Shown: positions 7,609 through 45,117 of the stretch, one piece after another | Numbering within the stretch: position 1 is the stretch's first letter | Layout of the letters: each line of letters opens with the position of its first letter | Source of the DNA: Heterodontus francisci | Lineage: Eukaryota | Assembly: GCF_036365525.1 (NCBI RefSeq) | Contig: NC_090378.1 | Coordinates: 82,452,357-82,516,356, forward strand | Direction of reading: 5' to 3' | DNA length: 64,000 nt | The notes under the pieces: model-generated | Database searches by the model: none | What the model was told of the DNA's origin: nothing | The model's input: the letters and a program-made list of their open reading frames with translations, nothing else | Program-made: the position numbers and the translations under genes

Positions 7609-10600
7609 CATAGAATGGTTACAGCACAGAAGGAGGCCATTTGGCCCATCGTGTCTGTGCCAGCTCTCTGCAGGAGCAATTCACCTAGTCCCCACTCCTC
7701 TACCCTTTCCCCGTAGACCTGCAATTGTTCTCTTCTAATTATCTAATTCTCTTTTGAAGGCCTTGATTAAATTTGCCTCCACCACACTCGGGCAGTATAT
7801 TCCAGATCCTAACTACTCATTGCGTAAAAAAGATTTTCCTCATGTCGCTGTCGCTTCTTTTGCCAATCACCTTAAATCCTCCTATTTCTGAATTCTTCCT
7901 CTAATGAGAACAGGTGCTCCCTATCTACTCTGTCCAGACCCCTCATGATTTTGATCAGCTCTATCAAATCTCCTCTTAATCCTTCTCTTCTCCAAGGAGA
8001 ACAGACCCAGCTTTTCTAGCCTATCCACATAACTGAAGTTTTTCATCCATGGAACAATTCTTGTGAATCTTTTCTGCATCTTCTCTAATGCCTTCACATC
8101 CTTCCTAACGCGTGGGGCCCAGAAATGAGTTGAGGCTGAACCAGTGTTTTTTTACAGTTTTATCATAACTTCCTTGTTTTTGTACTCTATGCCCCTATTT
8201 ACAAAGCCCAGGATCCCGTATGCTTTATTAACTGCTTTCTCAACCTGCCGTGCCACCTTCAATGATTTGTGTCCCTCTGCTCCTGCACCCCCTTTAGATT
8301 TGTACCCTTGAATTTATATTGCCTCTCCTCATTCTTCCTACTAAAATGAACCACTTCACATTTCTATGCATTAAATTTCATCTGCCACTTGTCTACCCAT
8401 TCCACCATCCTGTCTATGTCCTCTTGAAGTTTATCACTATCCTCCTCACAGTTCACAATATTTTCAAGTTTTATGTCATCTGCAAATTTTGAAATTGTGC
8501 TCTGTACACCCAAGTCTAGATCATTAATATAGATCAAGAAATGCAGTGGTCCTAATACTGATCTCTGGGGAACCCCACTGTAATACCTTCCTCCAGTCCA
8601 AAAGACAACAGTTCACCAGTACTCTCTGTTTCCTGTCACTCAGCCAATTTTGTATCCATGCTGCTACTGACCCTTTTATTCCATGGCTCTAACTTTGCTG
8701 ACAAGCCTGTTATGTGGCACTTTATCAAATGCCTTTTGGAAGTCCGTGTACACCACATTAACCTCGTTGCCCTCATCAACCATCTGTTACCTCATCAAAA
8801 AGCTCAAGCAAGTTAGTTAAACATGATTTGCCCTTAAGAAATCTGTGCTGGCTTTCCTTAATTAATCCACATTTGTGCAAATGACTTTAAATTGTGTCCC
8901 GAATTATCGTTTCTAAAAGCTTTCCCACCACTGAGGTTAAACTGACTGGCCTGTAATTGCTGGGCATATCCTTACACCCTTTTTTAAACATGGATGTAGG
9001 ATTTGCAAATCTCCAGTCCTCTGACACCATCACTGCATCTAAGGAGGATTGGAAGATTACGGCTAGTGCTCTGTAATTTCCTCCCTTACTTCTCTCAGCA
9101 TCCTAGGATTCATCTCATCCAGTTCTGGTGACTTTAAGTACAGCCAGCCTATCTGGTACCTCCGCTTCATCAATTTTTAGCCCATCCAGTGTCTCAACTA
9201 CCCTCTCTTTCACCGTGACTTGGGCAGTATCTTCTTTGGTCAAGGCAAAGTACTCATTTAGTACCTCAACTCTGCCTCCTGCCTCCATGCTCCCTAATCA
9301 TCCCCACTCCTCCTTTTACCACTCCTTTACTATTTATATGCCTATAGAAGACTTTTGGATTTTTTTTATTCATTTGTGGGATGTGGGCGTCGCTGGCTAG
9401 GCCAGCATTTATTGCCCATCCCTAATTGCCCTTAAGTAGGTGGTGGTGAGCTGCTGGCTTGGACTGCTGCAGTCCTTGGGGTGCAGGCATACCCACAGGG
9501 CTGTTAGGAAGGGAGTTCCTGAATCTTGACCAGTGACCGTGAAGGGACAACGATATAGTTCCAGGTCAGGATGATGTGTGGCTTGGAGGGGAAGTTGCAG
9601 GTGGTGGCGTTTCCATGCATCTGCTGCCCTTCTCCTTCTAGGTGGTAGAGGTCATGGGTTTGGAAGGTGCTGTCGAAGGAGCCTTAGTGAGTTGCTGCAG
9701 TGCATCTTGTAGATGGTACACACTGCTGCCATGGTGCATCGGTGGTGGAGGGAGTGAATGTTGGTAGAATGGGTGCCAATCAAGTGGTCTCCTTTGTCCT
9801 GGATGGTGTCGAGCTTCTCGAGTGTTGTTGGAGCTGCATCCATCCAGGTAAGTGAAGAGTATTCCATCACACTCCTGACTTGTGCCTTGTAGATGGTGGA
9901 CAGGCTTTGGGCAGTCAGGAGGTGAGTTACTCGCCGCAGAATTCCCAGCCTCTGACTGCTCTTATAGCCACTGTATTAATGTGGCTGGTCCAGTTCAGTT
10001 TCTGGTCAGTGGTAACCCCCAGGATGTTGATAGGGGATTTAGCAATGGTAATGCCGTTGAATGTCATGGGGAGATGGTTAGATTCTCTTGTTTGAGATGG
10101 TCATTGCCCAACACTTGTGTGGCACGAATGTTACTTGCCACTTATCAGCCCAAGCCTGGATGTTGTCCAGATCTTGCTGCATATGGACATGGGCTGCTTC
10201 AGTATCTGAGGAGTCACGAATGATGCTGAACATTGTGCAATCATCAGCGAACATCCCCACTTCTGACCTTATGATGGAGAGAAGGTCATTGATGAAGTAG
10301 CTGAAGATGGTTGGGCCTCGGACACTACCTTGAGGAACTCCTTGTATGTTAGCTGCCAGTCTCTTCTCATACTGTCTCTTTGCTGCTCTTATTTGTTTTA
10401 TTCACTTCCCCTCTGAACCTTCTATATTCAGCCTGGTTCTCAATTGTATTATCCACCTGGCATCTGTCATATGTACACTTTTTCTGCTTCATCTTACTCT
10501 CTATCTCTTTCATCAGCCAGGGAGCTCTGACTGATCGCCCTACCTTTTCCCCCTTGTGGGAAGGTACCTTGACTGTATCCAAACTATCTCCTCTTTAAAG

Positions 10601-30939: not shown

Positions 30940-31222
30940 AATTTAATAAGTCTAGTAATTTGTGTTGGCATGAGAAAAATGACCATGAATGCTGCTGTAC
31001 TTCCATAAAACTACAATTGATTCACTACTGGCAAGCAGGGAAAGGAATCTGTTACCTCTTCCTTCCCCCCCCTCCCCCCCCCCACCCCGTCTGTCCTATA
31101 TATAACTCCAGTCCCATACTCATAATGCCCTCTGAGCTGGATTAACAAGCCACTCAGTTGTGAAGGCACCTAGGGATGAGCAATAAATTCAGCCTTGCCA
31201 GTTTGGCACACATTCCCAGAAT
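30940..31222 (+). mobile_element. Old SINE of the head+core+LINE-tail family
   Basis: aagccactcagttg joined to aaggcacctagggatgagcaataaat, the same junction as the 39945-40313 copy. Confidence 0.65.
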
Positions 31223-33254: not shown

Positions 33255-34291
33255 TTTATAAATTCATTCATGGGATGTGGGCGTTGCTGGCCAGGCCAGC
33301 CTTTATTGCCCATCCCTAATTGTCTTGAGAAGGTGGTGGTGAGCTGTCTTCTTGAACCGCTGCAGTCCTTGTGAGGTAGGTACACCCACAGTGCTGTTAG
33401 GAAGGGAGTTCCAGGATTTTGACCCAACGACAGTGAAGGAACGGCGATATAGTTCCTAGTCAGGATGATGAGTGACTTGGGGGGGGGGGAACTTGCAGGT
33501 GGTGATGTTCCTATGCATGTGCTGCCCTTGAGGTGGTAGAGGTCACGGGTTTGGAAGGTGCTGTCTAAGGAGCCTTGGTGCGTTGCTGCAGTGCATCTTG
33601 TAGATGGTACACACTGCTGCCACTGCGCGTCGGTGGTGGAGGGAGTGAATGTTTGTGGATGGTGTGCCAATCAAGCAGGCTGCTTTGTCCTGGATGGTGT
33701 CGAGCTTCTTGAGTGTTTTTGGAGCTGCACCCATCCAGCCAAGTGGAGAGTATTCCATCACACTCCTGACTTGTGCCTTGTCGATGGTGGACAGGCTTTG
33801 GGGAATCAGGTGAGTTACTCGCTGCAGGATTCCTAGCCTCTGACCTGCTCTTTTTTATTCTTTTTTTTAATACATATTTACAAAAATAACTTTATTAATA
33901 ACAGAAAAGTAAACCAAAACTCAAATTAAAATGCCATTCTCGGTGTCGATGATGCGCTCCAGTCCCTGCGGTGCCCACCGGTCGCGGAAGGCCTCAAGCG
34001 TTCTGACCTGCTCTTGTAGCCATGGTATTTATATGGCTACTCCAGTTCAGTTTCTGGTCAATGGTAGCCCCCAGGATGTTGATAGTGGGGGATTCAGCGC
34101 TAGTAATGCCATTGAATGTCATGGGGAGATGGTTAGATTCTCTCTTGTTGCAGATGGTCATTGCCTGGCACTTGTGTGGCTCAAATGTTACTTGCCACTT
34201 ATCAGCCCAAGCCTGGATATTGTCCAGGTCTTGCTGCATTTTTACCCGGACTGCTTAGTATGTGAGGAGTCGCGAATGGTGCTGAACATTG
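33255..34291 (-). mobile_element. Truncated LINE of the tRNA-headed family, host of two nested insertions; continues at 37518-37672
   Basis: MEYSPLGWMGAAPKTLKKLDTIQDKAA, QQDLDNIQAWADKWQVTF; sequence resumes in register after each insert. Confidence 0.92.
33853..34001 (-). mobile_element. 149-bp 3' stub of an L1/Tx1-type LINE with a 14-bp TSD
   Basis: TSD TCTGACCTGCTCTT at 33839-33852 and 34002-34015; minus strand TLEAFRDRWAPQGLERIIDTENGILI*, then AATAAA and an A-rich tail. Confidence 0.8.
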
Positions 34292-37200
34292 GGGTAGGCG
34301 GTGGTGTTGTGGTATTATCACTGGACTAATAACCTAGAGACCCAGGGTATTTCTCTGGGGACATGGGTTCGAATCCCACCACAGCAGAAGGTGGAATTTG
34401 AATTTAATTAATAAATCTGGAATTAAAAAGCTAGTCTAATGATAGTCATGAAACCATTGTCGATGTTGTAAAAACCCATCTGGTTCACTAATGTCCTTTA
34501 GGGAAGGAAATCTGCTGTCCTTACCTGGTCTGGCCTACATGTGACTCCAGACCCACAGCAATGTGGTTAACTCTTACATGCCCTCTGAAATGGCCTAGCA
34601 AGCCACTCAGTTGTACCTAACCGCTACGAAGTCAATAAAAAGGAATGAAACCGGATGGACCACCTGGCATCGACCTAGGCACCGGAAACGACAACGGCAA
34701 ACCCAGCCCTGTCGACCCTGCAAAATCCTCCTTACTAACATCTGGGGGCTTGTGCCAAAGTTGGGAGAGCTGTCCCACAGACTAGTCAAGCAACAGCCTG
34801 ACATAGTCATACACACCGAATCATACCTCACAATGTCCCAGACACTGCAATCACTATCCCTGGGTATGTCCTGTCCCACCAGCAGGACAGACCCAGCAGA
34901 GGTGGTGGCAGAGTGGTAAACAGTAGGGAGGGAGTTGCCCTGGAAGTCCTCAACATCGATTCCGGATCCCTTGAAGTCTCATGGCATCAGGTCAAACGTG
35001 GGCAAGGTAACCTCCTACTGATTACCACGTACCGCCCTCCCTCAGCTGATGACTCAGTACTCCACCATATTGAACACCACTTGAAGGAAGCACTGAGGGT
35101 GGCAAGGGCACAAAATGTACTCTGGGTGGGGGACTTCAATGTCCATCACCAAGAGTGGCTCGGTAGCACCACAGCTGGCCGAGTCCTAAAGGACATAGCT
35201 GCTAGACTGGGTCTGCGGCAGGTGGTCGGGGAACCAACACGAGGGAAAAACATACTTGACCTCGTCCTCACCAATCTGCCTGCCGCAGATGCTTCTGTCC
35301 ATGACTGCATTGGTAGGAGTGACCACCGCACAGTCCTTGTGGTGACGAAGTCCCGCCTTTACATTGAGGATACCGTCCATCGTGTTGTGTGGCACTATCA
35401 CCGTGCTAAATGGGATAGATTTCGAACAGATTTAGCAATACAAAATGCTGTGGGCCATCAGTAGCAGCAGAATTGTACTCAACCACAATCTGTAACCTCA
35501 TGGCCCAGCATATCCCCCACTCTACCATTACCATCAAGCCAGGAGACCAACCCTGGTTCAATGAAGAGTGCAGGAGGTCATGCCAGGAGCAGCACCAGTC
35601 ATACCTCAAAATGAGGTGTCAACCTGGTGAAGCTACAACACAGGACTATCTGCGTGCCAAACTGCATAAGCAGCATGCGATAGACAGAGCTAAGCAATCC
35701 CATAACCAACAGATGAGATCTAAGCTCTGCAGTCCTGCCACATCCAGCTGTGAAAGGTGGTGGACAATTAAACAACGAACTGGAAGAGGTGGCTCCACAA
35801 ATATCCCCATCCTCAATGATGGGGGAGCCCAGCACATCAGTGCGAAAGATAAGGCTGAAGCATTTGCAACAATCTTCAGCCAGAAGTGCCAAGTTGATGA
35901 TCCATCTCAGCCTCCTCCTGAAGTCCCCAGCATCACAGATGCCAGACTTCAGCCAATTCGATTCACTCCGCGTGATATCAAGAAACGACTGAAGGCACTG
36001 GATACTGCAAAAGCTATGGGCCCTGACAATATTCCGGCAATAGTACTGAAGACCTGTGCTCCAGAACTTGCCGCGCCCCTAGCCAAGCTGTTCCATTTCA
36101 GCTACAACACTGGCATCTACCCTGCAATGTGGAAAATTGCCCAGGTATGTCCTGTACACAAAAAGCAGGAGAAATCCAACCCGGCCAATTACCACCCCAT
36201 CAGCTTACTCTCAATCATCAGTAAAGTGATGGAAGGTGTCATCAACAGTGCCATCAAGCGGCACTTGCTTAGCAATAACCTGCTCAGTTTGGGTTGCGCC
36301 AGGGCCATTCAGCTCCTGACCTCATTACAGCCTTGGTTCAAAAATGGACAAAAGGGCTGAACTCCAGAGGTGAGGTGAGTGACTGCCCTTGACATCAAGG
36401 CAGCATTTGACTGAGTATGGCATCAAGGAGCCCTAGCAAAACTGAGGTCAATGGGAATCAGGGGGAAACCCTCGGCTGGCTGGAGTCATACCTAGCGCAA
36501 AGGAAGATGGTTGTGGTTGTTGGAGGTCAATCATCTGAGCTCCAGGACATCACTGCAGGAGTTCCTCAGGGTAGTGTCCTAGGCCCAACCATCTTCAGCT
36601 GCTTCATCAATGACCTTCCTTCAATCATAAGGTCAGAAGTGGGGCTGTTCGCGGATGATTGCACAATGTTCAGCACCATTCGTGACTCCTCAGATACTGA
36701 AGCAGTCCGTGTAGAAATGCAGCAAGACCTGGACAATATCCAGGCTTGGGCTGATAAGTGGCAAGTAACATTCGCGCCACACAAGTACCAGGCAATGACC
36801 ATCTCCCCTTGACATTCAACAGCATTACCATCGCTGAATCCCCCACTATCAACATCCTGGGGGCTACCATTGACCAGAAACTGAACTGGAGTAGCCATAT
36901 AAATACGGTGGCTACAAGAGCAGGTCAGAGGCTAAGAATCCTGAGGTGAGTAACTCACCTCCTGACTCCCCAAAGCCTGTCCACCATCTACAAGGCACAC
37001 TTGTAATACTCTCCACTTGCCTGGATGGATGCAGCTCCAACAACACAAGAAGCTTGACACCATCCAGGACAAAGCAGCCCGCTTGATTGGCACCCCATCT
37101 GCAAACATTCACTCCCTCCACCACCGACGCACAGTAGCAGCAGTGTACCATCTACAAGATGCACTGCAGCAATGCACCGCAGCAATGCACTAAGGCTCCT

Positions 37201-37517
37201 TAGACAGCACCTTCCAAACCTGCAACCTCTACCAACTAAAAGGACAAGGGCAGCAAATACATGGGAACACCACCACCTGCAAGTTGCCCTCCAAGTCACA
37301 CACCACCCTGACTTGGAACTATATCACCGTTCCTTCACTGTCGCTGGGTCAAAATCCTGGAACTCCCTTCCTAACAGCACTTTGGGTGTACCTACCCCAA
37401 ATGGACTGCAGCGGTTCAAGAAGGCAGCTCACCACCAGCTTCTCAAGGGCAATTAGGGACGGGCAATAAATGCTGGCCTGGCCAGCGTCGTCCACATCCC
37501 TAATGAATTTTTTTTAA
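34292..37517 (+). mobile_element. Full-length CR1-group LINE with a tRNA-derived 5' head and a single, now frameshifted, APE endonuclease-RT ORF (~34590-37456)
   Basis: TSD AACATTG (34285-34291 / 37518-37524); A box 34302-34312, B box GGTTCGAATCC 34366-34376; ILLTNIWGL, YRPP, GDFN, SDH, GVPQGSVLGP, FADD motifs. Confidence 0.92.
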
Positions 37518-39789
37518 AACATTGCGCAATCATCAGCGATCATCCCCACTTCTGACCTTATGATTGAAGGTCATTGATGAAGCAGCTGAAGATGGTTGGG
37601 CCTAGGACACTACCCTGAGGAACTCCTGCAGTGATGTCCTGGAGCTCAGATGATTGACCTCCAACAACCACAGTGTGATACTTTTTATATGTATTTACCC
37701 AGGGTGCACTTACTTGGATCTGAACTTAGTCCTTGAAATTCACTTGTGAAATTCTACACAAAATCATGTAATATAACGTTTAATCCACTCATGAACATTT
37801 TGTGAAGATTAGCATTTTTGCATAAAGTTCAGCTTTTCAAAAAGTTTAATTATTTGCTAACACACACATTTAACACAATTAAGTAAATCTGTACATTAAT
37901 ATTCACTAGTAAAGAAAAAAATATTCTAAGACAATGATCAAACAACTTTTTACCAAATAAATTTTGTGGAGTATCAGAGAAAAACATTTACAGTCTGCAA
38001 CAAGTACATCCTTTGTAAGACCATGAAAAAGTAGAACAGAAAATCAAAGCCATCACAATGTGAGAATAATCCCAAAACGTAATTTAGAGTTTAGTCAGCT
38101 TGGAGCTCTACAACAGTCAAGTGTCCTGGTGTTCCATTGACCAGACTTCTTTGAAGTTTTTCTTTAATTATGTAACCTAAGTTACATTGATTGTTTAGTC
38201 TGAAGAGCCTTCCCAATTACTGAGACATCAGTGAAAGAATCTGCAAGCAAACACAGAATTTTTCACAAAGAATGCAGAGAACTGACTTTTGATGTTTTCA
38301 AGATTATGAATTAATTGACAAAACATTGACTCAGGTGCATTTTCAATATGGTGAAGAGGAGGTCAGTTAATCATTTCAGAAGTTCAAAGCAAGAAACATC
38401 TTGGAAATTAAGTAGTCAGGGATATTTTTATATGAAGGATAATAGATTTGTATTATAAGTTACCAGACGAGGCCATTGAAACCAACTGTATAGGCTAGGT
38501 TAAGAGACATTTAGATGTGTTTCTGAAGAGAAATGCACTGCAGGATATGGTAATTAGGAAGTGGGGTTGTTATCAATCGAAAAAGGATAGATAAATGGCC
38601 TTTCCTGTTTCTAAAAGCTCTGATATCACATCATAATAAATTTATTTAAAATACCTAAATTTTCTCATTAGCAAAACTTTCTGGCTTAAAATTTAACAAA
38701 AAGGGGAAAATGTTTGGCAGTGAGATCATCTTCACTGATCAGAGAACTCACCCTATATAGGGGAACCTAACAGAACCAACTATCAAGCATCCCTGTTCTC
38801 CTGGTATATCACTGTCTCACCAAAAGCTGTTGAGTAACTGCTGCCGACAGGGCAGAGGCAACTTTTAATCAAGCACAAAGAATAAAGAGGATACAGTGGA
38901 ATATATTTTATAAAAGAAATTGAACTTTATTAATTTTCATAACTTCTGACAACTTGCTTTCAGGATAGGGTAGTAGAGGTACAGGCTGTTGAGTTTCTAA
39001 TATGAGATAAGTAACTACATATCCAAAAACCTTCCTCCCCAACTCCTCACATTAGACTCAAAAATCATAAAGCTGACCTGAAATTCTGAATATGCAATTC
39101 TGCAGGTATTATAGCAGTTTAATTTACCAATCTCAAAAGAAAAAGATAATAACTGAGAAGTGAACGTATTTTTTAAACTGGAAACACTGGTCAATTTTGG
39201 AATGTAAACATGTTGAATGTGAAGAGAGCCAATGTGAATAAGCTTGAAACAATCATATCAAATTTTAGTTTCAAATTTTCTCCTCTCCTGAAAGTGGTGG
39301 GGTAGGTTTCTACAGAGTTGTCAGCAGCTACTCCACTTTAGGGTGCATCAAAGCCAAGCCTGATCCGTTCCTATCTGGTATTCACCGATGCACTTTCCAC
39401 CGGGCATTACTGCAAAGTGATGATGGACAGAAACCCTGGCTGGTATTTTTTCCACTTCTCTACTCCAGAAACATTGAGGCCAATTAAACAGCACCTGCTA
39501 TTCCCTAGCTGAGATTAGCTAAATCAGCAAAGACTTGAAACCTTCCTGTTTTATGTGTGTCAGTAACACAGTTAACCATTGAGCTATTGGACAGCCTACT
39601 ATATTAAGATTTTTAAATTAGAAACCACCAGCCAGTTTTTGGACTGAATCTAAGGTAGAAACACAATGTGATCAAAGTTTAAACAATTGTAATCAAATTG
39701 AGATGTTATAATTATGTTTCTTGGTCAATTACCTGCTACCAGTCCCTCTTTCCCAGGGTATGAGGCTTTGGAAACACTCACCTCGCAGG

Positions 39790-39944: not shown

Positions 39945-40313
39945 TCTTTTCATGGGATGTGGGCATCACTGGCAAGGTCAGCATTTATTGCCCATCCCTA
40001 TTTACCCTTGACAACTGAGTGGCTTGCTAGGCCATTTCAGAGGGCAGTTAAGAGTCAATCACATTGCTGTGGGTCTGGAATCATGTGTAGGCCAGACCAG
40101 GCAAGGACAGCAGATTCCTTCCCTAAAGGACATTAGCGAACCATATGGGTTTTACAACGTTTCATAGCACCATTACTGAGATTAGCTTTCAATTCCAGAT
40201 TTTTTTATTTATTAATTCAATTTAAATTCCACCAACTGCCATGTGTCCCCAGGGCATAGCCTGGGCCTCTGGAAAACTAGTTCAGTGACATTACCACTTT
40301 GTCACCATCTCCC
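39945..40313 (-). mobile_element. SINE made of the 5' head/core plus 3' tail of the 34292-37517 LINE
   Basis: Colinear with 34292-34613, then jumps to 37443-37510 at ...ctcagttg|tcaaggg...; B box deleted in this copy. Confidence 0.88.
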
Positions 40314-40887: not shown

Positions 40888-43800
40888 GCTTTTGCGAGCA
40901 GCAGCTTTGACAGAACGAAGTGCGGAGCGGACTTTCAGCTGAGCGGTCAATTTCAAAAAGTTACAAGTTAATCCCCTTTTGTTTCGGAGGACCAGGGGAC
41001 TGCTGGGTAAGGGAAAACTATTTATTTGGGCAGTGGCAGTACCCGAGACACTACACGTGTAGTGTCTCCCACCCACCCTCCTCCTCTAACCAAAAAAAAA
41101 GGACTCTGGTGTGTTGATAAGGTAAGCTTTTTATTTAAAAAGTTCAGTCCGTCGGATTGCTAAGCGAACAAGTTTTGACTTTTTTTTTTAGTTTGGTTTT
41201 TCAGTAGATTTATTGGGAATCTAGAATAGTGGGAATGGAGGTGAAGGCAGTTGTATGTTCCTCCTGCAGAATGTGGGAGGTAGGGGTCGCCAAGAGTGTC
41301 CCTGCTGACTGCATCTGCGGGAAGTGCACCCAACTCCAGCTCCTCGCAGACCGCGTTAGGGAACTGGAGCTGGAGCTGGATGAACTTCGGATCATTCGGG
41401 AGGCGGAGGGGATTATTGACAGGAGTTATAGGGAGGCAGTCACACCTCAGGTAAAAGAAGTAGGTAGATGAGTTACCGTCAGGGGAAGGAAAGGGAACCA
41501 GCAGGCAGTGCAGGGATCCCCTGTGGCCGTTTCCCTCAACAACAGGTATACCGTTTTGGATACTGTTGGGGGGGACGACTTACCAGGGGTAAGCAGGTCT
41601 CTGGCACAGAGTCTGTCCCTGTTGCTCAGAAGGGAAAGGGGAAGAGGAGCAGAGCATTAGTCATTGGGGACTCCATAGTTAGGGGAACAGATAGGAGGTT
41701 CTGTGGGAACGAGAGAGACTCATGGTTGGTGTGTTGCCTCCCAGGTGCCAGGGTACGTGATGTCTCCGATCGTGTTTTTGGGATCCTTAAGGGGGAGGGG
41801 GAGCACCCCCAAGTCGTGGTCCACATAGGCACCAACGACATAGCTAGGAAGAGAGATGGGGATTTAAGGCAGAAATTCAGGGAGCTAGGGTGGAAGCTTA
41901 GAGCGAGAACAACCAGAGTTGTTATCTCTGGGTTGTTGCCTGTGCCACGTGCTAGCGAAGAGAGGAATAGGGAGAGAGAGGAGTTGAACACGTGGCTGCA
42001 GGGATGGTGTAGGAGGGAGGGTTTTGGTTTCCTGGATAATTGGGGCTCTTTCTGGGGTAGGCGGGACCTCTACAAACAGGATGGTCTTCACCTGAACCAG
42101 AGGGGTACCAATATCCTGGGGGGGAGATTTGTTAGTGCTCTTCGGGGGGGTTTAAACTAAATCAGCAGGGGAATGGGAACCTAAATTGTAGTTCCAGTGT
42201 ACAGGCTGTTGAGAGTAGTGAGGTCGGGGATAAGGTTACAGGGACGCAAGAGGGCACTGGCAAGCAAGAACTTGGTTTAAAGTGTGTCTACTTCAACGCC
42301 AGGAGCATCCGGAATAAGGTGGGTGAGCTTGCAGCATGGGTTGGTACCTGGGATCCTGATGTTGTGGCCATTTCAGAGACATGGGTAGAGCAGGGGCAGG
42401 AATGGATGTTGCAGGTTCCGGGATTTAGATGTTTCAGTAAGAACAGAGAAGAGGGTAAAAGAGGGGGGGGTGTGGCATTGTTAATCAAGGAAAGTATTAC
42501 AGCGGCAGAAAGGACGTTTGAGGACTCGTCTACTGAGGTAGTATAGGCCGAGGTTAGAAACAGGAGAGGAGAGGTCACCCTGTTGGGAGTTTTCTATAGA
42601 CCTCCGAATAGTTCCAGAGATGTAGAGGAAAGGATAGCGAAGATGATTCTCGACAGGAGCGAGAGTAACAGGGTAGTGGTTATGGGGGACTTTAACTTTC
42701 CAAATATTGACTGGAAATACTATAGTTCGAGTACTTTAGATGGGTCTGTTTTTGTCCAGTGTGTGCAGGAGGGTTTTCTGACACAGTATGTGGACAGGCC
42801 AACCAGGGGCGATGCCACATTGGATTTGGTACTGGGTAATGAACCCGGCCAGGTGTTCGATTTAGATGTAGGTGAGCACTTTGGCGATAGTGATCACAAT
42901 TCGGTTAGGTTTACCTTAGCGATGGGCAGGGACAGGTATATACCGCAGGGCAAGAATTATAGCTGGGGGAAAGGAAATTATGACGCGATTAGGCAAGATT
43001 TAGGATGTGTAGGATGGGGAAGGAAACTGCAGGGGATGGGCACAAACGAAATGTGGAGCTTATTCAAGGAGCAGCTAATGCGTGTCCTTGATAAGTATGT
43101 ACCTGTCAGGCAGGGAGGAAGTTGTCGAGCGAGGGAGCCGTGGTTTACTCAAGAAGTTGAAGCGCTTGTCAAGAGGAAGAGGGCGGCTTATGTTAGGATG
43201 AGACGTGAAGGCTCAGTTAGGGCGCTTGAGAGTTACAAGCTAGCCAGGAAGGATCTAAAGGGAGGGCTAAGAAGAGCAAGGAGAGGACACGAGAAGTCAT
43301 TGGCGGATAGGATCAAAGAAAACCCTAAGGCTTTCTATAGGTGTATCAGGAATAAACGAATGATAAGAGTTAGAACAGGGCCAATCAAGGATAGTAGTGG
43401 GAAGTTGTGTGCGGAATCAGAGGAGATAGGGGAAGCGTTAAATGAATATTTTTCGTCAGTATTTACAGTAGAAAAAGAAAATGTTGCCGAGGAGATTACT
43501 GAGATACAGCCTACTAGGCTAGATGGGATTGAGATTCACAAGGAGGAGGTGTTAGCAATTTTGGAAAGAGTGAAAATAGATAAGTCCCCTGGGCCAGATG
43601 GGATTTATCCTAGGATTCTCTGGGAAGCCAGGGAGGAGATTGCAGAGCCGTTGTTGTTGATCTTTATGTCGTCATTGTCGACAGGAGTAGTGCCGGAGGA
43701 CTGGAGGATAGCAAATGTTGTCCCCTTGTTCAAGAAGGGGAGTAGAGACAGCCCTGGTAATTATAGACCTGTGAGCCTTACTTCGGTTGTGGGTAAAATG

Positions 43801-45117
43801 TTGGAAAAGGTTATAAGAGACAGGATTTATAATCATCTTGAAAAGAATAAGTTCACTTGCGATAGTCAGCACGGTTTTGTGAAAGGTAGGTCGTGCCTCA
43901 CAAACCTTATTGAGTTTTTCGAGAAGGTGACCAAACAGGTGGATGAGGGTAAAGCCGTGGATGTGGTGTATATGGTTTTCAGTAAGGCGTTTGATAAGGT
44001 TCCCCACGGTAGGCTATTGCAGAAAATACGGAAGTATGGGGTTGAAGGTGATTTTGAGCTTTGGATCAGAAATTGGCTAGCTGAAAGAAGACAGAGGGTG
44101 GTGGTTGATGGCAAATGTTCATCCTGGAGTTTAGTTACTAGTGGTGTACCGCAAGGTTCTGTTTTGGGGCCACTGCTGTTTGTCATTTTTATAAACGACC
44201 TGGATGAGGGTGTAGAAGGGTGGGTTAGTAAATTTGCGGATGACACGAAGGTCGGTGGAGTTGTGGATAGTGTCGAAGGGTGTTGTAGGGTACAGAGGGA
44301 CATAGATAGGCTGCAGAGCTGGGCTGAGAGATGGCAAATGGAGTTTAATGCGGAGAAGTGTGAGGTGATTCACTTTGGAAGGAGTAACAGCAATGCAGAG
44401 TACTGGGCTAATGGGAAGATTCTTGGTAGTGTAGATGAGCAGAGAGATCTTGGTATCCAGGTACATAAATCCCTGAAAGTTGCTACCCAGGTTAATAGGG
44501 CTGTTAAGAAGGCATATGGTGTGTTAGCTTTTATTAGTAGGGGGATCGAGTTTCGGAGCCACGAGGTCATGATGCAGCTGTACAAAACTCTGGTGAGGCC
44601 GCACCTTGAGTATTGCGTGCAGTTCTGGTCACCGCATTATAGGAAGGATGTGGAAGCTTTGGAAAGGGTGCAGAGGAGATTTACTAGGATGTTGCCTGGT
44701 ATGGAAGGAAGGTCTTATGAGGAAAGGCTGAGGGACTTGGGGTTGTTTTCGTTAGAGAGAAGGAGGAGGAGAGGTGACTTAATAGAGACATACAAGATAA
44801 TCAGAGGGTTAGATAGGGTGGATAGTGAGAGTCTTTTTCCTCGGATGAGGATGGCAAACACGAGGGGACATAGCTTTAAGTTGAGGGGTGAAAGATATAG
44901 GACAGATGTCAGAGGTAGTTTCTTTACGCAGAGAGTAGTAGGGGCGTGGAACGCCCTGCCTGCAACAGTAGACTCGCCAACTTTAAGGGCATTTAAGTGG
45001 TCATTGGATAGACATATGGATGTAAATGGAATAGTGTAGATCAGATGATCGGCGCAACATCGAGGGCCGAAGGGCCTGTACTGCGCTGTAATATTCTAAA
45101 AAAAATTCTAATTCTAA
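40888..45117 (+). mobile_element. Near-intact full-length CR1 LINE (HER1-like): 5' UTR, ORF1 (zinc finger/leucine zipper + SGNH esterase), ORF2 (APE-RT); antisense in a YIPF1 intron
   Basis: ORF1 CSSC...CGKC, zipper, IGDSIVRG, HIGTND, DGLHLN; ORF2 CVYFNARS, GDFN, SDH, QHGF, FADD; attcta-repeat tail; lesions: TGA 41469, an ORF1 frameshift near 41594, TAG 42544. Confidence 0.95.
42151..45039 (+). pseudogene. CR1 ORF2 endonuclease/reverse transcriptase with one premature stop
   Basis: One reading frame from the ORF1 junction to 45039, interrupted only by TAG at 42544-42546 (likely TGG>TAG). Confidence 0.88.

Follow-up and report, generated by a model that had tools for sequence, protein, structure and literature searches.

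In R2 and other non-LTR retrotransposons, an HDV-like ribozyme is accompanied by an uncapped RNA and cap-independent translation, and L1 ORF2 is translated by AUG-independent reinitiation. The R2-type ribozyme elements and L1 are Pol I or Pol II transcripts, and we know of no anticodon-codon mimic in either. Mimicry of this kind as a means of AUG-free initiation has been described for viral RNAs, and how it arose is termed obscure (PMC13273307); the words "retrotransposon" and "LINE" occur 0 times each in that paper's main text. In the dicistrovirus IGR IRESs, pseudoknot I (PKI) imitates an anticodon stem-loop that is base-paired with a codon, and it positions the next codon for decoding (PMC10275262, PMC13273307). 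A loop 3 linker is also described in the IGR IRES (PMC4709265), and the start codons of type 6d are given as GCU or ACU (PMC10275262). A further body of work concerns SINEs, the conservation of whose core domains is unexplained in the account of PMC5499810; for SacSINE1 and LmeSINE1, the partner LINEs are described as L2-2_CM or CR1-4_DR-like (PMC5499810, PMC3747384).

The locus considered here lies in a stretch of 64,000 nucleotides from Heterodontus francisci (the window) and consists of a LINE and a SINE derived from it (Table 1). Near the beginning of the endonuclease-reverse transcriptase (EN-RT) frame of the LINE stands the sequence ATG-GCC-TAG-CAA, which is proposed to be part of a predicted mimic of a tRNA anticodon stem-loop rather than a start codon followed by readthrough. 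We infer that the loop triplet AGC would pair with an in-frame GCU 21 nt downstream, that this pair would occupy a ribosomal tRNA site in the manner of dicistrovirus pseudoknot I, and that the EN-RT protein would begin, without any AUG, at the codon after GCU (ACG or ACA), on an RNA that is likely a Pol III transcript. Sequence comparison gives this reading a probability of roughly two in three.

Table 1. Features of the element and of the SINE derived from it, in window coordinates
Feature	Position	Strand	Basis or remark
tRNA-headed single-ORF EN-RT non-LTR retrotransposon, full-length but decayed copy	34291..37519	+	alignment of 121 copies
tRNA-like head: A box 34302-34312, B box 34366-34376	34291..34385	+	motif matches
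Core common to LINE and SINE	34386..34613	+	blastn to SINE 40297-40011, 76% identity
Predicted hairpin CUGA-aa-UGGC(CUAGCAA)GCCA-c-UCAG	34585..34610	+	in MFE and centroid folds
Spacer, 12 nt, variable between lineages; codon 9 TAA in some	34611..34622	+	
In-frame GCT, codon 12, complementary to loop AGC; predicted codon mimic	34623-34625	+	
Predicted first decoded codon (ACG/ACA, Thr) and basic linker to endonuclease	34626..34727	+	putative start position
APE endonuclease and reverse transcriptase frame	34728..37456	+	ends TAG 37454-37456, inside tail common to SINE
3' tail common to SINE, T8 (37508-37515) then A	37444..37519	+	likely Pol III terminator
SINE copy: head and core to hairpin end, joined directly to tail (to about 39949)	40011..40297	-	

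In the window copy, the ATG at 34590-34592 is followed by GCC, the TAG at 34596-34598, CAA and a frame open into ILLTNIWGL, and on these points the sequence-only reading agrees with a fresh reading of the letters. Its further statement that 34590 is the only in-frame ATG was mistaken, as another, at 34578, lies in the same open segment (and is altered in an older lineage), and those at 34491 and 34539 are also in frame, both separated from it by stops. The window copy is itself disrupted downstream by frameshifts and stops, and the question of the start was therefore put to the whole family. To count TAG against other first bases throughout the genome, exact patterns of 35 nt that single out the LINE junction were used; they match 4751 copies with TAG and 967 with C, G or A, and the identical 15-mer recurs in the SINE on the minus strand (40035-40021), so that the TAG is, as had been supposed, no private decay of one copy. 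Among the first 100 of the 967 sense-base matches listed, about half are GAG. In copies selected by RT protein the codon is covered in 38 of 60, and 29 of these 38 have TAG. The family-majority frame has 975 open codons after the TAG, and the first in-frame ATG that follows is residue 285, beyond the endonuclease. The missing AUG is real and ancestral, and the central claim, that the family has no usable AUG and must rely on a non-AUG or IRES-like start, is borne out.

That a protein is nevertheless made from this frame is indicated by its pattern of variation. The 121 copies, the window copy included, align to 3292 core columns; outside CpG sites, their divergence from the majority is about 2-5%. 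Variants present in at least 8 of the 121 copies comprise 32 nonsynonymous and 54 synonymous changes, against a neutral ratio of 2.46; in 50 TAG copies taken alone, variants present in at least 4 divide into 35 and 57, and singletons behave neutrally (1584 nonsynonymous, 505 synonymous; expected ratio 2.46). Purifying selection acts on the 975-codon EN-RT frame, and because the synonymous excess is found among variants common to several copies, the source elements required their own protein. On copy L034, Pfam models PF03372, PF14529 and PF00078 are matched, with the endonuclease at 47-250. The family has the features of an APE-type non-LTR element: APE and RT in one frame, an A-rich 3' end and 5'-truncated copies. 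Open frames of 1073 and 945 amino acids were rejected as 5'-truncated copies fused to flanking sequence. Full-length copies appear unusually common, 27 of the 60 RT-selected copies reaching the 5' end, a share that selection for RT similarity and long frames may inflate, and inspection of the RT-selected copies by eye revealed no clear target-site duplications.

Several other pieces of related sequence were noted in passing. The full-length element interrupts an oppositely oriented, 5'-truncated member of its own family (window 33260-34291 and 37518-37672, minus strand), which has a further gap at about 33853-34001; an older 3' fragment of the family (83%) lies at 9368-10342 (minus), a short diverged core fragment covering the hairpin at 31118-31161 (plus), and a distant LINE with an 830-codon open EN-RT frame and no T-run depletion at 42547-45039 (plus). 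Elsewhere, L010/L011 (G000:C5:42205005-42208805) is a head-to-head inverted duplication of the 5' part of an element.

The predicted hairpin presents a 7-nt loop, CU-AGC-AA (34595-34601), with AGC in the anticodon position (34597-34599). In what we take to be the corresponding tRNA numbering, it reads C32 U33 AGC A37 A38, and the TAG is U33-A34-G35. The basic linker begins at the GCT. What defines a PKI, an anticodon-loop hairpin complementary to an in-frame triplet immediately before the first codon, is predicted from the sequence here. The hairpin has no lineage-level variants, codons 4-8 show no synonymous lineage variation, and the GCT is altered mainly by CpG decay. In contigs from three other organisms (those at least 80% like the element, guessed to be RNA), no variant of 2% or more is listed in the hairpin or the GCT, and the spacer varies. 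The earlier placement of the start signal in the core, at 34380-34610, holds in part, as the hairpin is there, but the key element extends beyond it to the GCT. The stability of the hairpin is not above that of shuffled sequences (z -0.82; for the whole core, z 0.04).

Where translation begins is bracketed from both sides. On the upstream side, codon 9 (34614-34616) is a stop in some lineages: there are 220 TAR matches, with TAA in 87 of the first 100, and about half of the 30 codon-9-stop copies examined fall on one young haplotype with nested further changes. In contigs of organisms B and C chosen by the same 80% likeness, A accounts for 29% and 27% of the depth, respectively, at the corresponding base of codon 9. 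The TAA lineage has 4 nonsynonymous and 2 synonymous private changes, and its autonomy remains putative. On the downstream side, the frame to TNIW is intact in 19 of 26 older-lineage copies, including those with common 3-nt length variants or deletions, and codons 13-20 vary strongly in the older lineages. The upstream TAA and the retention of frame downstream place the start at about codons 10-14, which argues against readthrough and against a frameshift.

Evidence for the same arrangement outside the family comes from a group of distant relatives. The protein P0002 is 41% identical to that of the window family and groups with it at an SH-aLRT of 91 in a quick tree of 53 rows. Two loci of the P0002 clade that retain their 5' ends, L253 and L257 (86% to P0002), have no 5' DNA similarity to the window element that could be found. 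Each nevertheless has a 7-nt loop on a stem in the range of 11-12 bp, CCAGCUA at L253 622-628 and CUAGCGA at L257 464-470, and, 23-24 nt after the loop, an in-frame GCU ACA AGU with a basic linker. A matching AGC arrangement arises by chance in 0.4-0.6% of 3000 Markov resamples. In L257 the loop sequence AGCGA can form 5 bp with UUGCU, and an in-frame TAG again lies in the loop, with no ATG upstream of it. Differences between the two stems include changes from G-C to G-U, and long nested stems are predicted in the folds of both loci. Their 5' leaders (L253:452-610, L257:368-452) are short (127-200 nt) and highly structured, begin GGGUAG-GG-G in resemblance to the first bases of the window element, and in L253 include an additional GCACC-GCUUA-GGUGU hairpin.

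Relatives known from protein only can be approached by back-translation. Among proteins whose frame extends far enough towards the N-terminus, 4 of 4 are compatible with such a hairpin at the aligned residue; at neighbouring residues the count is 0 of 20, and in windows drawn at random it is 12 of 400; the criteria were fixed after the sequences had been inspected, and one of the four, P0015, is the protein of L253 itself, so that three cases are new, and these are interrelated. P0132 and P0025 are compatible with the hairpin-codon arrangement, and P0020, which has Val where the others have Ala, is compatible with the anticodon GAC only, which fits a compensatory GAC/GUC pair predicted from its protein. 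The called starts of the P0002 clade lie at scattered positions, 0 to 63 residues ahead of the endonuclease, in keeping with a start without AUG. Against generality, called Mets lie near the start region in P0025, at the position of ATG 34590, and in P0030 and P0150, at or within the linker. A hairpin scan of 8 more distant loci (the L259-L277 set) revealed no AGC or canonical loop arrangement upstream. Searches of viral contigs returned no relatives, those of genome contigs 3 distant fragments, and an Atlas search only generic EN-RT clusters. Some distant single-ORF relatives (L259, L260, L268; P0042, P0068, P0173-P0183) have instead a 2A-like D-x-x-NPGP before the endonuclease.

The main rival to a start at the codon after GCU is another non-AUG route within codons 10-14, in which GCU itself would be decoded first, with the frame set by a GGUU(A)/(U)AACC helix or by reinitiation after the 2-codon uORF, probably with initiation factors. 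This route is rather unlikely but a serious competitor, as the codon-9 TAA and the downstream retention of frame fit it equally well. In type 6 IRESs, moreover, GCU is described as the codon usually decoded first, and in HalV the P-site codon is ACC (PMC10275262); GGTT (34565-34568) and AACC (34619-34622) are stable between lineages, with an adjoining A-U pair acquired in the young lineage. GGUU is not in a loop, however, and L253 and L257 have neither the helix nor the uORF. Among the relatives compared, the aligned codon tracks the loop triplet, while the residue after it varies (T, R, C).

A start at ATG 34590 that relies on leaky readthrough of UAG-CAA, one of the routes named in the sequence-only reading, is unlikely. 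UAG-CAR is a leaky context and UAG-CAR-YYA a readthrough motif; the context here, UAG CAA GCC, does not fit the longer motif, and amplified lineages have a second in-frame stop, the TAA at codon 9. The ATG, the TAG and the frame are all conserved, as readthrough would require, and the P0025 protein reads M-D-Q-Q opposite M-A-stop-Q, but L253 and L257 have no ATG at that place. The lack of synonymous lineage variation across codons 4-8 also speaks against it, as does the behaviour of sense mutants, which arose repeatedly and never spread as a lineage. This last point was followed in 120 fetched copies, 60 by RT protein (picked from the best 140 RT-protein candidates for long frames or high rank) and 20 each from the GAG, CAG and TAG pattern matches. 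A tree was built from 78 copies, with GAG and CAG overrepresented on purpose; its retention index at codon 3 is 0.10, whereas most lineage sites score 0.5-1.0. The sequence-only reading had named a sense codon in the youngest copies as the outcome that would tell against it; on the tree the shortest-branch copies mostly have TAG, and the sense codons are scattered. The non-coding SINE shows a similar sense share (229/1111, against 967/5718 in the LINE). The UAG-CAA makes better sense as part of an anticodon loop than as a signal for readthrough.

The origin of the sense-codon copies appears to lie in mutation. At CTA sites, T>G is found at 3.0%, against 0.2-0.6% for T outside TpA, on both strands, and the effect looks like a genome-level mutational hotspot. 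Family-wide, T>G at CTA/CTAG runs some 5-10 times faster than at T outside TpA (for example at window 34676 and 36581), and TpA sites also show a doubling of T>C. The sense-codon copies are scattered hotspot mutants and form no subfamily; a sense-codon master subfamily, suspected from the excess of GAG, was ruled out on three grounds, namely the tree, the comparison with the SINE and the hotspot at CTA. Much the same evidence makes it improbable that the TAG copies are passengers whose mobility in trans depends on sense-codon masters or on a LINE that differs at its 5' end. The 967 sense-codon copies do exist, and a different 5' end could have escaped a search in which only the best 140 RT candidates were scored; yet no other common 5' end appears among the 60 RT-selected copies, the sense codons make no clade, and purifying selection acts within the TAG copies. 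A -1 shift after initiation at the out-of-frame ATG 34645, as had also been suggested, is hardly credible. In the window copy that ATG (+1 frame) has a purine at -3 and a frame open past the endonuclease start, but among older-lineage copies it survives in only 12 of 26 (G>A in 15 of 30). Frame 0 is also retained ahead of it, and no canonical slippery heptamer was seen by eye. A second out-of-frame ATG, at 34655, is CpG decay in the window copy.

Another question raised by the tRNA-like head is which polymerase transcribes the element. The head matches the A and B box consensus, although ARAGORN calls no tRNA in it, and the 5' end is sharp: 27 of the 60 RT-selected copies begin within 8 nt of the 5' end of the window copy, with unrelated flanks. 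The family majority (3292 nt) contains 0 internal TTTT and only 8 TTT runs, against 41-49 for A, C and G. Within the ORF there are 4 TTT where codon shuffles lead one to expect 12.8 (none of 2000 as low), and 6 of 6 control ORFs, including the other LINE of the window and the relatives, show no TTT depletion. The depletion of TTTT is by itself weak (0 against 2.1 expected, P 0.09), and the control L259 has a comparable dip (P 0.044). The T8 near the 3' end is the only run of at least 4 T in the window copy, and such a run is present at the 3' end in 15 of the 77 ends scored. From these signals in the sequence, Pol III is the likely maker of the element RNA. Because the relatives have no A or B boxes and no T-run depletion, the hairpin-codon unit likely predates the tRNA head.

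The SINE retains the hairpin and has neither the GCT nor the ORF; its junction is matched exactly throughout the genome by 882 copies with TAG and 229 with a sense base. Its core, which we take to be Deu/SacSINE1-like, comes from the 5' region of the LINE. In 2018 Kojima reportedly held RTE and Vingi to be the sole clades contributing to SINE bodies. With the hairpin present in the SINE and the codon lost from it, the conservation of SINE cores can be tested directly on this pair.

A broader proposal may be built on the tRNA-mimic reading, but it is tentative, with the odds somewhat against it. A clade of animal LINEs would start its sole protein by a factor-free, tRNA-mimicking, dicistrovirus-like IRES, placed here behind a tRNA promoter to give an autonomous protein-coding Pol III retrotransposon, and the SINE core would be the ribosome-binding 5' leader of the LINE, cut just before the codon mimic and docking SINE RNA on ribosomes. 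If true, the mechanism would have a LINE counterpart in a host genome, which would bring retroelements within its reach and suggest how it could have spread; a protein-coding Pol III unit of 3.3 kb would require just such a cap-independent start, and the conserved domains of SINEs would gain a function in ribosome docking. A full-text literature search, whose coverage excludes most subscription journals and Repbase, found no paper on this LINE arrangement.

Comparison with described systems places the locus between several of them. Like the DeuSINEs SacSINE1 and LmeSINE1, the SINE has a tRNA head, a conserved core and a LINE-derived tail (PMC5499810, PMC3747384). The DeuSINE partner LINE is described there as having the tail only in common, whereas here the LINE has the whole head and core, and the SINE corresponds to the LINE with the whole stretch between hairpin and tail, spacer included, removed. 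As in the case treated by Kojima in 2018, the middle part of the SINE comes from a LINE 5' region; the passage in question has LINEs as Pol II transcripts, whereas the present element appears to be a Pol III transcript (PMC5786205).

The likeness to the dicistrovirus IGR IRES lies in an anticodon-like hairpin loop, a short linker and a complementary in-frame triplet before a non-AUG start (PMC10275262, PMC13273307, PMC4709265). The differences are the retrotransposon host, a PKI-like unit that is predicted from sequence, and a pairing limited to 3 bp (4 with U33) because A37 and A38 face CC; the MFE fold moreover pairs GUGGUU with AACCGC in a competing helix that would hide part of the GCU. 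The L1.1 motifs, described as U[G/A]A[U/C]C and UGCUA, or UAUACG and G[U/A]CAGG (PMC10275262), have no placed pair (L1.1a/L1.1b) in the window, L253 or L257. As L1.1 is out of place, no further pseudoknot corresponding to the PKII or PKIII upstream of PKI in type 6 is resolved in the folds, Rfam gives no IRES match and the 3-4 bp face a competing helix, the element is not filed as a member of type 6. Among retroelements, the single-ORF APE elements with 2A (StopGo) N-termini resemble it in having no ORF1 and a non-canonically translated EN-RT (PMC3894237). They differ in that neither the present element nor the P0002 clade has a 2A motif, and in its place stands the hairpin-codon unit.
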